A stretch of 64,000 nt of DNA from Fuerstiella sp. (GTDB lineage Bacteria; Planctomycetota; Planctomycetia; Planctomycetales; Planctomycetaceae), in NCBI GenBank assembly GCA_014238335.1, contig JABABI010000035.1, positions 2,361-66,360 on the forward strand, read 5' to 3'. Both the position numbers and the translations under genes were made by a program. Under the pieces are notes generated by a model, which saw nothing but the letters and a program-made list of their open reading frames with translations, searched no databases and was not told the origin of the DNA. Every line of letters starts with the position of its first letter. The first letter of the stretch is position 1. This document shows positions 1,116 through 4,322 of this stretch, piece by piece.

Positions 1116-1706
1116 ATGCCATACATTGAGCAGATCGACGAGGACGAAGCGACAGGCGAGCTGGCAAAGATCTATGAGTCATGTCAGCAGCGCATGGGCC
1201 TGGTCGCCAACATCCTGAAGGTGCAGGGTCAGGATCCGGGCATTTTGCGAGAATCACTCGGCTTTTACATCCGGCTGATGAAGTCGCCGAATTCGCTGGG
1301 TGCCGCACAACGTGAGATGCTGGCGGCAGTAGTCAGCAACGTCAACGACTGCTACTACTGAACAGTATCTCACGCACGGGACTTCGGTCTGGAGTCCGGA
1401 AACGAGCAGGTGGCCCGGCAACTCATCTACGACTATCGCACTGCAGAACTTTCTATCGCAGATCGAGCGCTCTGTGACTACTCGGTAAAACTGACGCTGA
1501 CACCGGGAGAGGTCGACGAATCGGACGTCGTCGTTCTGCATAAAGCAGGATTCAGTGACGAGCAAATCACAATTGCCGTTCAGGTCATTGGCTACTTCAA
1601 CTACATCAATCGCATTGCCGATGGGCTGGGAGTTGATCCTCAGGACGGCATGCGGCCCGGTCACGAAGAGTGGCGTGCTGCAAAAGGCAGAGACTACTTG
1701 TCATAG
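1116..1706 (+). CDS. AhpD-like/CMD-family peroxidase with in-frame UGA (probable selenocysteine, CxxU), 196 aa
   Basis: ORFs 1116-1361 and 1410-1706 are in the same frame and separated only by TGA 1359-1361. Readthrough gives VSNVNDCYY-U-TVSHARDF, which matches the AhpD-family CxxCxxxH motif. Both halves look like CMD/AhpD protein. Confidence 0.85.
1379..1397 (+). promoter_or_regulatory. Candidate bacterial SECIS hairpin
   Basis: GGACTTC-GGTCT-GGAGTCC forms a 7-bp stem (one G-U) with a 5-nt loop starting with G. The loop begins 24 nt after the UGA, which fits the bSECIS geometry. Confidence 0.65.
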
Positions 1707-1748: not shown

Positions 1749-2813
1749 ATGCCTGACCGATCGAAGACCCGACGCGATTTAATGAAACCTGGCGGATCCG
1801 GCGACGATCGCTGCGCGGATGCCACAGACGCTCCGGTCGGCGGCAGCACGGTACGAGTGGCAACTCGTGCGATGGCGTGCGAGTTTTCGATTATCATGAA
1901 TCCAGGTTCGCACGAACACCTGTCGACCGTTGGTGACGTCCTGGAAATGGTCCACGAAATTGAGAGCTGGCTAAGTGTCTACAAGCCAAACAGCGAGATT
2001 TCGCAGACCAATCGCCTGGCGGCAACGGTACCCGTCAAGCTTCAACCTGCACTCTACGACCTTCTGAAGACTGCTCGAAGGCTGCATCAACAGACGAATG
2101 GCGCCTTTGATGTGGCGGCGGGTGCGCAAATCAGGCTGTGGCGTGCATGTCGCGCTGAGCAACGCATTCCGACGACGGAAGAACTCAAGGCAGCCGTCGC
2201 CACGTCGGGCTCCCACCACCTGGAACTGGACGACGAAGCCAGCACGGTGACATTCGACATTGATGGACTGCAGCTGGATCCGGGAGCGATCGGAAAAGGA
2301 TATGCTCTGGACGAGGCCGCTGCATGGATGTCGCAAGCGGAAGACGGACCGCAATCATTTCTGATTCACGGTGGTCACAGCAGCCTTGTGGCTCGTGGAC
2401 AGCACACCGGCCAATCAGGATGGCCGGTGGGAATCGGAAATCCGCTGTTCACGAAGAAACGCCTGGGAACAGTGCTGCTACGGGATCAGGCGATGTCGAC
2501 GAGTGGCTCGAACATTCAGTTTTTTCGACATGAAGGGCAACGCTACGGGCACATTCTGGATCCTCGAACAGCAATGCCCGTCGAGGGAATGCTGTCGGTG
2601 ACCGTTTTGGCGGATTCTGCAGCCGTCGCAGACGCACTTTCCACTGCGTTTTTCGTGTTGGGGGTCGAAAATGCTCGGGTGGTCTGTGATAATCTGCCAA
2701 ATGTTGGAGCCATCCTGATTCCCTTCCCCGAAAGTGGAAAACGTGTCACTCCAGCGGTCATCGGAGTGCCTTTTGACCAGATTTTCTGGGACAAAGAGCA
2801 AGTGGCTCTGTAG
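1749..2813 (+). CDS. apbE: FAD:protein FMN transferase (ApbE family)
   Basis: RAMACEF, GAFDVA, LDPGAIGKGYA, GHILDPRT and ADALSTAFFVLG motifs. Confidence 0.93.
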   Translation: MPDRSKTRRDLMKPGGSGDDRCADATDAPVGGSTVRVATRAMACEFSIIMNPGSHEHLSTVGDVLEMVHEIESWLSVYKPNSEISQTNRLAATVPVKLQPALYDLLKTARRLHQQTNGAFDVAAGAQIRLWRACRAEQRIPTTEELKAAVATSGSHHLELDDEASTVTFDIDGLQLDPGAIGKGYALDEAAAWMSQAEDGPQSFLIHGGHSSLVARGQHTGQSGWPVGIGNPLFTKKRLGTVLLRDQAMSTSGSNIQFFRHEGQRYGHILDPRTAMPVEGMLSVTVLADSAAVADALSTAFFVLGVENARVVCDNLPNVGAILIPFPESGKRVTPAVIGVPFDQIFWDKEQVAL

Positions 2814-2945: not shown

Positions 2946-4322
2946 ATGCTCGACTCTGGAGAGTTCAGCGACCAAACTGTCTTATATTCCAACGTGAGTT
3001 CCGGCAGATTTCTGCCCACTATAAATACCCGGAGTTCAGATCTCGTGACCGAAATCCGTCGCTATTCTCTAGCCGCCATCATTCTGCTGGTGGTGCTGCG
3101 TCTGGCCATTGGTTGGCAACTGCTGTACGAAGGCCTGTGGAAGATTGATACGCTGAAGTCGCCGCGACCGTGGACGTCCGGCGGCTACCTGAAGAATTCT
3201 GTTGGGCCAATGCGAGACACATTTCGCAAAATGGCCGGCGATCCGGATGAACTTGGCTGGCTGGACTACGACGTCGTCGCGACTCGCTGGCAGAGTTGGG
3301 CAGAGCGTTTTCGGAGGCACTACGATCTAAACGAAAAACAGGCGGAGTCATTTCGCAAACTTATGGAAGGCAGTTGGGGACAGGTCGACGGGAAAAAAGT
3401 CTATGCCGCCGAACTGCTTACGTTGCCTGCAGGGGTGAGTGCCGACAGTCTGCTCATCAAGCACCGCGATCCGGGAAAGAAGCTTCATAATATCGCCTGG
3501 TACGACGCGGGGCGAAAACGACTATTGGTCAACGCGGAGCAACAGCTGACTCCGCGAGACAAGGCGAAGCTGTTGAGCCTTTCTAACGATCCGAAATTTC
3601 AGAAAGCTGTCAATGACGTCGATACGCGACAACGCAGAGGCATGGGATATCCCATGAAGCTGGCCGGGGCATTGAAAGGTAATCCCGAACTGCTCGGCAA
3701 CGAAGACTGGCAACGTCTCGGCAAACTCGATCAGTACAAACAGGAACTCGCGGAATACGAAACGCTGCATGCGAAGGCAGCCACGCCATTTGAATGGGAT
3801 CACCTGAAGTACACGTGGGGAAAAATTCAGGACCTTCGCTCAGAACTCACCGGGCCGATCAAGGGCATGGAAACAGAACTAATGGACAAAGCCAATGCTC
3901 TGCTTACGATTGAACAGCAAACGCGTGGACCGGTTTCTAAACCATGGACTGCGTTAAGGTTCACCGACACCATGACAATTCTTGGGCTCACAGGTTTGGG
4001 AATCTTGCTGGTACTGGGATTGTTCACACGGTTTGCCGCAGTCGCTGCAGCGTTCATGCTGTTTAACTTCTATCTGGCGATGCCACCTCTGCCCGGCGTG
4101 CCTGAACTTCCGGGGCCCGAACATAGTTTCATCGTGAACAAAAATCTGATCGAAGTCTTCGCACTGCTGGCCATTGCCGCACTGCCCACCGGCATGTGGT
4201 TCGGGCTGGACCGAATTCTCAGCGTGTTTTTCGGCAACTGGCAAGCCGACAGGAAGGTTGGTTCGTCGATGAAATCGACAGTAGCTACCGGCGACGAGCC
4301 GGAAGCCGCGGCGGCAACCTGA
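2946..4322 (+). CDS. DoxX-family membrane protein with large soluble insertion (start may be GTG ~3045)
   Basis: N-terminal LRLAIGWQLLYEGLWK and C-terminal GILLVLGLFTRFAA...IVNKNLIE TM segments flank a ~280 aa hydrophilic loop. Confidence 0.8.
   Translation: MLDSGEFSDQTVLYSNVSSGRFLPTINTRSSDLVTEIRRYSLAAIILLVVLRLAIGWQLLYEGLWKIDTLKSPRPWTSGGYLKNSVGPMRDTFRKMAGDPDELGWLDYDVVATRWQSWAERFRRHYDLNEKQAESFRKLMEGSWGQVDGKKVYAAELLTLPAGVSADSLLIKHRDPGKKLHNIAWYDAGRKRLLVNAEQQLTPRDKAKLLSLSNDPKFQKAVNDVDTRQRRGMGYPMKLAGALKGNPELLGNEDWQRLGKLDQYKQELAEYETLHAKAATPFEWDHLKYTWGKIQDLRSELTGPIKGMETELMDKANALLTIEQQTRGPVSKPWTALRFTDTMTILGLTGLGILLVLGLFTRFAAVAAAFMLFNFYLAMPPLPGVPELPGPEHSFIVNKNLIEVFALLAIAALPTGMWFGLDRILSVFFGNWQADRKVGSSMKSTVATGDEPEAAAAT

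Follow-up and report, generated by a model that had tools for sequence, protein, structure and literature searches.

An in-frame UGA in an AhpD-like gene of Fuerstiella is probably decoded as selenocysteine

When a gene for a small redox protein is cut by an in-frame stop codon, it may be a broken gene, two neighbouring genes, or a single gene whose stop codon carries another meaning. This question is raised by a locus in a 64,000-nt stretch of Fuerstiella sp. DNA (contig JABABI010000035.1; hereafter the window), to which all positions refer unless they are preceded by a contig or locus label. Under genetic code table 11, the locus is read as two open reading frames (ORFs) in the same frame, of 81 aa (1116–1361) and 98 aa (1410–1706). 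The initial annotation, made from the sequence alone, proposed that both belong to one frame broken only by a TGA, that this codon takes the place of the second Cys of an AhpD-type CxxCxxxH motif, and that this planctomycete decodes selenocysteine (Sec) there. Our analysis leads to the same reading: the locus most probably encodes a single 196-residue AhpD-like thiol/selenol oxidoreductase in which the UGA at codon 82 is decoded as Sec, with a probability that we place at about 0.93. The coordinates of the features discussed are collected in Table 1.

Translation of the region on the forward strand gives 196 residues with the TGA as the sole stop, and the codons that separate the two ORFs (1362–1409) are sense codons throughout, as had been claimed. 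The residues around the TGA read N-V-N-D-C79-Y-Y-U82-T-V-S-H86. The read-through product matches the NCBIfam model TIGR01926, 'peroxidase-related enzyme', with 161.2 bits (cut-off 81.8), its residues 3–177 covering positions 2–177 of the 178-position model, while the Pfam CMD match lies just above threshold (23.8 versus 23) and the AhpD core-domain model TIGR00778 is barely reached (28.5 versus 27.8 bits). Residues 8–178 align without interruption with five solved AhpD-like structures (2pfx, 6k40, 3c1l, 2oyo and 2prr; E 2e-30 to 1e-19, and 2e-30 to 1e-29 for the first three), from which sequence homology a single all-alpha AhpD/CMD fold across both halves is predicted. On the REM...C..C...H motif of 2pfx, 6k40 and 3c1l, U82 is paired with the second Cys of CxxC, and the conserved Glu and His are matched by E67 and H86, so that the proposed position of the TGA is borne out by homologs and solved structures alike. 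The five proteins, among them DR1765 (6k40), are full-length homologs with the same E-x11-C-x-x-C-x-x-x-H signature; they are ~30–35% identical to the Fuerstiella protein and differ from it in having Cys, in every structure matched, at the column of U82.

On these profile and structure matches, the product is assigned to the AhpD-like, TIGR01926/COG2128 'peroxidase-related enzyme' family, the 'AhpD-like 1' of the selenoproteome literature. Two models built for selenoproteins are not reached by the protein, namely NF041238 AhpD_rel_CFYUT (seleno)protein (57.4 versus 175 bits) and NF053654 YciW-related (seleno)protein (22.6 versus 310 bits), which represent related but distinct selenoprotein subfamilies. 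Because neither model is reached and nothing ties the gene to ahpC, we regard the product as AhpD-like rather than as a canonical AhpD. A canonical AhpD of the Mycobacterium tuberculosis type, partner of AhpC, was considered and rejected, there being no adjacent ahpC and only the bare match to TIGR00778.

The evidence that the codon is meaningful comes in the first place from its conservation. The closest loci are found in Fuerstiella metagenome-assembled genomes and in an uncultured Planctomycetaceae bacterium. TGA occupies the U82 column in 13 of 13 distinct orthologs, which share 59–82% identity and belong to several genera of the family, and in which E67, C79 and H86 are invariant. It stands at the same column in further clades at 28–47% identity, where the motif reads C-F-Y-U, C-K-Y-U, C-P-Y-U or C-H-Y-U. 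Exactly this column is occupied by Cys in other homologs (L031–L037 and the entries P0002, P0003 and P0009), which form with the TGA genes the Sec/Cys pair expected of a selenoprotein. Selection has acted on both halves of the gene: before the TGA the median pairwise ratio of nonsynonymous to synonymous rates (dN/dS) is 0.14, after it 0.18, and over the 16 codons ahead of the first possible restart codon 0.19, at a dS of ~1.6, which is saturated. Apart from the TGA, there are neither stops nor frameshifts. As the TGA column is unbroken in the 13 orthologs, purifying selection is equal on its two sides, and synonymous change is suppressed in the hairpin that follows (see below), the site stands well above chance.

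A second line of evidence is the genome itself, an 8.38-Mb Fuerstiella assembly (Planctomycetaceae) that is 99% complete. The four genes of the Sec pathway, for which the initial annotation had recommended a search, are all present: the profile search of the genome found SelA (512 bits), SelB (311 bits) and SelD (268 bits) above their curated cut-offs, and a tRNA-Sec with anticodon UCA was detected both by ARAGORN and by the Rfam model RF01852 (74 bits against a gathering score of 47). The overlapping selA and selD genes share 4 nt; their contig also carries the tRNA-Sec, ~11 kb further downstream, and selB lies on another contig, at C421:3692–5551. SelD is a 738-aa fusion of an N-terminal Pyr_redox_2 (Ndh-like) domain with a Cys-form SelD (C-K-G-C-G-C-K), a type already described in the Global Ocean Sampling (GOS) study (PMC2398784). 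Five other genes, all of the AhpC/TSA family (thioredoxin fold), each have a single in-frame TGA in the redox motif or next to it; the motif is a recognised Sec motif in four of them and less clear in the fifth. In four of the five a hairpin loop lies 20–25 nt downstream of the TGA, and a simple scan found no hairpin at the remaining one, on contig C25. Judging from their sequences, these five are likely to be additional unannotated selenoproteins. Since five such genes carry an in-frame TGA, in four cases within a recognised motif, the Sec trait appears to be in active use. A search of the whole genome for the formate dehydrogenase alpha subunit gave no match above the TIGR01591 cut-off, and the two best molybdopterin-enzyme matches (C99:24060–26171 and C368:15525–17387) are free of in-frame TGA. 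FdhA and SelD have been proposed as the two proteins that maintain the Sec trait, and in this genome neither is a selenoprotein.

Bacterial selenocysteine insertion sequence (SECIS) elements lie 3' of the UGA, and a hairpin with that placement was among the features originally pointed out; a 7-bp stem with a G-led 5-nt loop is indeed present. It includes one G-U pair, its loop opens with GG and starts 24 nt after the UGA, its folding energy is -8.6 kcal/mol, and its invariant 6-bp core spans 1380–1396. Search models for bacterial SECIS (bSECIS) elements place the apical loop 16–37 nt after the UGA, and both the distance and the leading G fit this expectation. In the SECIS of Escherichia coli fdhF, SelB binds the apical stem-loop, with the G and U of a GGUC loop. 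The Fuerstiella hairpin likewise stands immediately 3' of the UGA within the coding sequence and its loop, GGUCU, contains GGUC; it differs from the fdhF type in its lack of a bulged U, its short 6–7-bp stem and its dissimilar stem sequence. On this arrangement we consider it a putative bacterial SECIS.

A number of observations weigh against this assignment and, to some extent, against the reading as a whole. The 71-nt region folds no better than its shuffles (z = +0.71), for which reason thermodynamics alone was dropped as evidence. When positions are drawn at random from this genome, ~1.8% have an equally good hairpin 20–28 nt away, a share that drops to 0.9% once the first two loop positions are required to include a G; the hairpin by itself is therefore only moderately unusual and constitutes weak evidence. 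No Rfam family matches it in a scan of 1250–1550 with E up to 10. Across the 13 orthologs none of the six core pairs varies, which leaves no covariation signal; the outermost pair, the sole variable one, joins two third-codon positions and is G-C in six orthologs, C-G in three and unpaired in four. The codons of the hairpin also specify a conserved D-F-G-x-E-S peptide, and the nearest Cys forms (L055, L056 and L057) keep the stem, so that it is not exclusive to UGA genes. Finally, beyond the close Fuerstiella genomes the orthologs have no conserved neighbour that would indicate a redox partner.

Most of these points would be accommodated if Sec were inserted with the help of another or an extended structure, the segment 1379–1397 being conserved for its D-F-G-L-E-S peptide and by codon preference. 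As covariation among the orthologs is uninformative, the case for the hairpin was made to rest on the suppression of synonymous change and on the comparison between clades. Among the 70 codon columns in which a degenerate amino acid is conserved across the 13 orthologs, nine show no synonymous change, and these include all four hairpin codons of this kind (D89, F90, G91 and E93) as compared with five of the 66 elsewhere (Fisher p = 1.4e-4). The G91 codon is always GGT even though it is four-fold degenerate, whereas D, F, G and E codons in the rest of the gene vary freely. The hairpin is thus constrained at the level of the RNA. In distant Sec clades, where the peptide is different, a 6–8-bp stem recurs whose loop starts 24–25 nt after the UGA and has a G among its first two positions; the stems themselves differ (AGCCUC/GAGGCU, GACCUC/GAGGUC, GACUUC/GAAGUC, UUCCUGC/GCAGGGA), and GGUC or GGUCU loops reappear on unrelated stems. 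The orthologs, rather than all having TGC or TGT with no conserved hairpin, keep TGA and hairpin together; a Gly-form homolog has lost both the UGA and the stem; and no competing conserved structure was seen. All in all, we consider it unlikely that the element is to be found elsewhere.

Two peculiarities in the immediate context of the UGA may be mentioned here. The codon that precedes it (Y81, 1356–1358) is TAC in all 13 orthologs, and is one of just nine columns free of synonymous change, and the base that follows it is always A. These may represent a codon-context constraint on recoding, or chance combined with the conservation of Thr83.

It could also be supposed that the UGA is read as Trp, Cys or Gly, through near-cognate suppression or an alternative code. 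Such a reading finds some backing in the W that appears at the Sec column in several full-length database entries (P0004, P0006, P0007, P0019, P0025 and P0097), and in the genuine GGA Gly codon of a Verrucomicrobiaceae homolog. In the case of P0004 (locus L058), however, the W was confirmed as a TGA translated as Trp ('with_TGA=W'), and it seems that gene callers applied to metagenomes adopted a TGA=Trp code on short contigs so as to get past the stop in a selenoprotein gene, which would make the W forms artefacts. Moreover, the genome has a complete, dedicated Sec machinery; the codon coincides with the catalytic Cys in a redox motif, a position at which no residue other than Cys or Sec is functional; the spacing of the conserved hairpin is that of a canonical SECIS; and five AhpC/TSA genes have their TGA at or beside a thioredoxin-fold motif, four of them in recognised Sec motifs. 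Insertion of a standard amino acid is accordingly very improbable.

The two-gene arrangement, with an 81-aa N-terminal protein ending at the UGA and a separately initiated C-terminal protein of ~98–115 aa, would agree with the GTG at 1410 and with the ortholog fragments predicted from a TTG or GTG start directly behind the TGA (P0005, P0014 and P0015). Nevertheless, there is no start codon in 1362–1409, the 16 codons of which are under purifying selection and encode the essential His86; the solved homologs form one continuous domain across the junction, and a split would leave Cys79 and His86 on different chains and do away with the second redox residue. The dN/dS values of 0.14, 0.18 and 0.19 exclude this arrangement for practical purposes. 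They equally dispose of a pseudogene produced by a nonsense mutation in an ordinary Cys-type gene, a reading that table 11 and the public gene callers would imply and that is contradicted by the identical TGA in orthologs of several genera, by its recurrence throughout the phylum (see below) and by the absence of the further lesions that would betray decay.

If the UGA is decoded as Sec, the most likely course of events can be outlined, in which we infer the insertion of selenium, the binding of SelB to the hairpin, the substrate and the reductant, taking the recoding steps from the bacterial Sec pathway and the enzymatic steps from homology. SelD, here the Ndh-SelD fusion, would produce selenophosphate, with which SelA would turn Ser-tRNA-Sec into Sec-tRNA-Sec. 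SelB-GTP carrying the latter would dock on the hairpin while the UGA is in the ribosomal A site, and Sec would be inserted at codon 82 in place of chain release. The AhpD of M. tuberculosis, the lipoamide-dependent reductant of AhpC, relies on Glu118, Cys130, Cys133 (the nucleophile) and His137, and Sec82 is presumably the counterpart of Cys133: in both proteins a Glu precedes the first Cys by 12 residues and a His follows the second redox residue by four, although they belong to different subfamilies and the Fuerstiella gene has neither an adjacent ahpC nor a conserved neighbour. Sec82 would therefore replace the nucleophilic second Cys of the AhpD active site E-x11-C-x-x-C-x-x-x-H. His86 and Glu67 would serve as the proton relay that activates Sec82 for attack either on a peroxide or on an oxidised partner, for example a peroxiredoxin; Cys79 would resolve the intermediate, giving a selenenylsulfide with Sec82 that a reductant would then re-reduce. 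A thiol/selenol peroxidase or disulfide-reductase activity would be expected by analogy with DR1765, the Cys homolog of Deinococcus radiodurans, whose knockout is H2O2-sensitive and whose rescue requires the CxxC cysteines (PMC8945050).

The initial annotation was right in counting AhpD-like proteins among the known bacterial selenoprotein families, but it understated the case, as the TIGR01926 CxxU protein is itself on record. 'AhpD-like protein, TIGR01926, CxxU' is a row in a 2026 table of prokaryotic selenoprotein families (PMC13188914), and AhpD-like 1 (COG2128, CxxU), with 299 genes, was the fourth most abundant selenoprotein family in the GOS data (PMC2398784). The Fuerstiella protein resembles the AhpD-like 1 proteins of the Sargasso Sea and GOS collections in its profile family, in a CxxU with Sec second, in having one Sec per protein, in its origin from a marine bacterium and in the bSECIS-type hairpin directly 3' of the UGA (PMC2398784, PMC13188914). 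There is no substantive difference, apart from the fact that the ortholog group of Fuerstiella and related Planctomycetaceae has been shortened by GenBank and Joint Genome Institute (JGI) gene calls. The case is thus an ordinary one: the gene lacks annotation, but its selenoprotein family is well catalogued and occurs very commonly in the phylum.

The prediction that standard annotation would break the gene is borne out by the public records. The GenBank/JGI calls for the Fuerstiella orthologs are C-terminal fragments of 113–115 aa that begin just past the TGA (P0005, P0010–P0016), one of them named 'hypothetical protein [Fuerstiella sp.]' (P0014) and another 'peroxidase [Fuerstiella sp.]' (P0015), and more distant relatives are represented by similar fragments of 107–131 aa. 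Truncation of this kind has been described as a general annotation problem of bacterial selenoproteins (PMC13326102). The gene is flanked by a sulfatase gene and by an ApbE-family gene that starts 43 nt after its stop codon, a synteny confined to the five closest genomes. In a promoter and terminator scan, no terminator-like site was found between the selenoprotein gene and apbE, nor anything useful for the selenoprotein gene; co-transcription with apbE is possible, in an arrangement kept only in the closest Fuerstiella genomes.

Table 1. Positions of the AhpD-like locus and of related genes. Unlabelled positions are those of the window; labels beginning with C are contigs of the genome assembly, those beginning with L are loci.
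Feature	Position	Strand	Basis or remark
Complete AhpD-like selenoprotein coding sequence (putative), 196 residues; ATG 1116, true stop TAG 1704–1706	1116..1706	+	Single frame, one TGA
Probable Sec codon UGA (U82), aligned with the second Cys of CxxC	1359..1361	+	TGA conserved; Cys in other homologs
Active-site signature E67-x11-C79-x-x-U82-x-x-x-H86	1314..1373	+	Translation and structure alignment
Codons of the signature	E67 1314–1316; C79 1350–1352; U82 1359–1361; H86 1371–1373	+	Translated sequence
Putative bacterial SECIS hairpin	1379..1397	+	Fold and conservation
Hairpin 5' arm GGACUUC	1379–1385	+	Folded sequence
Hairpin loop GGUCU	1386–1390	+	Folded sequence
Hairpin 3' arm GGAGUCC	1391–1397	+	Folded sequence
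ApbE-family FAD:protein FMN transferase	1749–2813	+	Next after the selenoprotein gene
458-aa protein with C-terminal DoxX domain	2946–4322	+	Next after apbE
selA-selD overlapping operon	C199:71148–74773 (L074 1649–5274)		Profile matches
AhpC/TSA-family TGA gene	C233:74877–75245	+	AFTGG-U-TKE (peroxiredoxin, TxxU)
AhpC/TSA-family TGA gene	C27:7066–7464	-	GDT-U-PVC (UxxC)
AhpC/TSA-family TGA gene	C422:123140–123511	+	NW-U-PHC
AhpC/TSA-family TGA gene	C99:23116–23451	-	SW-U-FC (unclear)
AhpC/TSA-family TGA gene	C25:977–1363	+	FGCLT-U-PPF (deiodinase-like)
Nearest Cys-form (TGC) relative	L055 100–693		Stem GGACUUC/GGAGUCC retained at the same distance
Nearest Cys-form (TGC) relative	L056 308–913		Stem GGACUUC/GGAGUCC retained at the same distance
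Nearest Cys-form (TGC) relative	L057 601–1200		Stem GGACUUC/GGAGUCC retained at the same distance
Gly-form homolog, genuine GGA codon at the Sec/Cys column	L054 1501–2100		GCA_013391475.1, Verrucomicrobiaceae bacterium N1E253; annotated 'peroxidase-related enzyme'

The forms that have another residue at the Sec column are informative about the history of the site. The stem kept by the nearest Cys forms may be a remnant SECIS left after conversion of Sec to Cys; remnant SECIS-like hairpins following such conversions have been described (Zhang et al. 2006; PMC1794560, Fig. 4). In two distant Cys forms the hairpin, at 21 nt, is an unrelated one, and the Cys forms do not constitute a clean control for the hairpin. 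The Gly form, L054, is 50% identical to the Fuerstiella protein; its GGA lies one base away from TGA, and the downstream hairpin is lost. In its sister L057, with TGC, the stem persists. Judged from its sequence, L054 may be a catalytically dead or repurposed derivative. In the maximum-likelihood tree, the Cys and Gly forms fall within a clade with 100/99 support, the sister lineages and the outgroup being Sec forms. This topology fits a Sec-bearing ancestor, two losses being as parsimonious as one loss and one regain.

The initial annotation further stated that Sec use is not commonly highlighted in this phylum, an emphasis that needs correcting, as Sec use is common there. Sec machinery and selenoproteins had been reported before in Planctomycetes (PMC4807772), and in an even sample of 301 Planctomycetota genomes, scored by cut-off, SelB is present in 214 (71%) and TIGR01926 in 133 (44%). 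Exactly one TGA occurs in ~139 of 150 TIGR01926 matches among the matches listed, a figure that counts stops and leaves their column unread, and TGA-bearing TIGR01926 genes are found in ~40% of the sampled genomes. Within the family and the genus the distribution is uneven. SelB occurs in one of 15 other sampled Planctomycetaceae genomes; the ortholog is present in eight of 19 genomes of the genus, source genome included, was not found in a one-contig 8.9-Mb genome of the same genus, and turns up, at E<=1e-40, in 10 of the 150 genomes sampled from the family. The patchy occurrence of both ortholog and SelB suggests that the Sec trait has been repeatedly lost or laterally gained in Planctomycetaceae.

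No new biology is claimed for this locus, since earlier publications cover its family and motif, the mechanism of recoding and the problem of annotation alike. Its value is mainly one of annotation, as the full-length reading restores a catalytic CxxU centre that is lost in records made of C-terminal fragments or translated with the wrong code. It also adds to the evidence for an active planctomycete selenoproteome of at least five candidates, and the figures for the phylum are a reminder that Sec use is routine in Planctomycetota. Beyond this, we would venture, tentatively and with some doubt, that Sec is the default form of TIGR01926 proteins in the phylum and probably the ancestral one, and that this AhpD-like protein and its counterparts, together with a few selenoproteins of the peroxiredoxin and thioredoxin fold, keep the Sec machinery under selection in aerobic marine lineages such as Fuerstiella, where FdhA and SelD are not Sec proteins. 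If this were true, the Cys and Gly forms of the clade would have lost Sec recently, with the SECIS either still in place or only just gone, and the lineage would depart from the model of Sec maintenance centred on FdhA and SelD that was proposed for bacteria in 2006.

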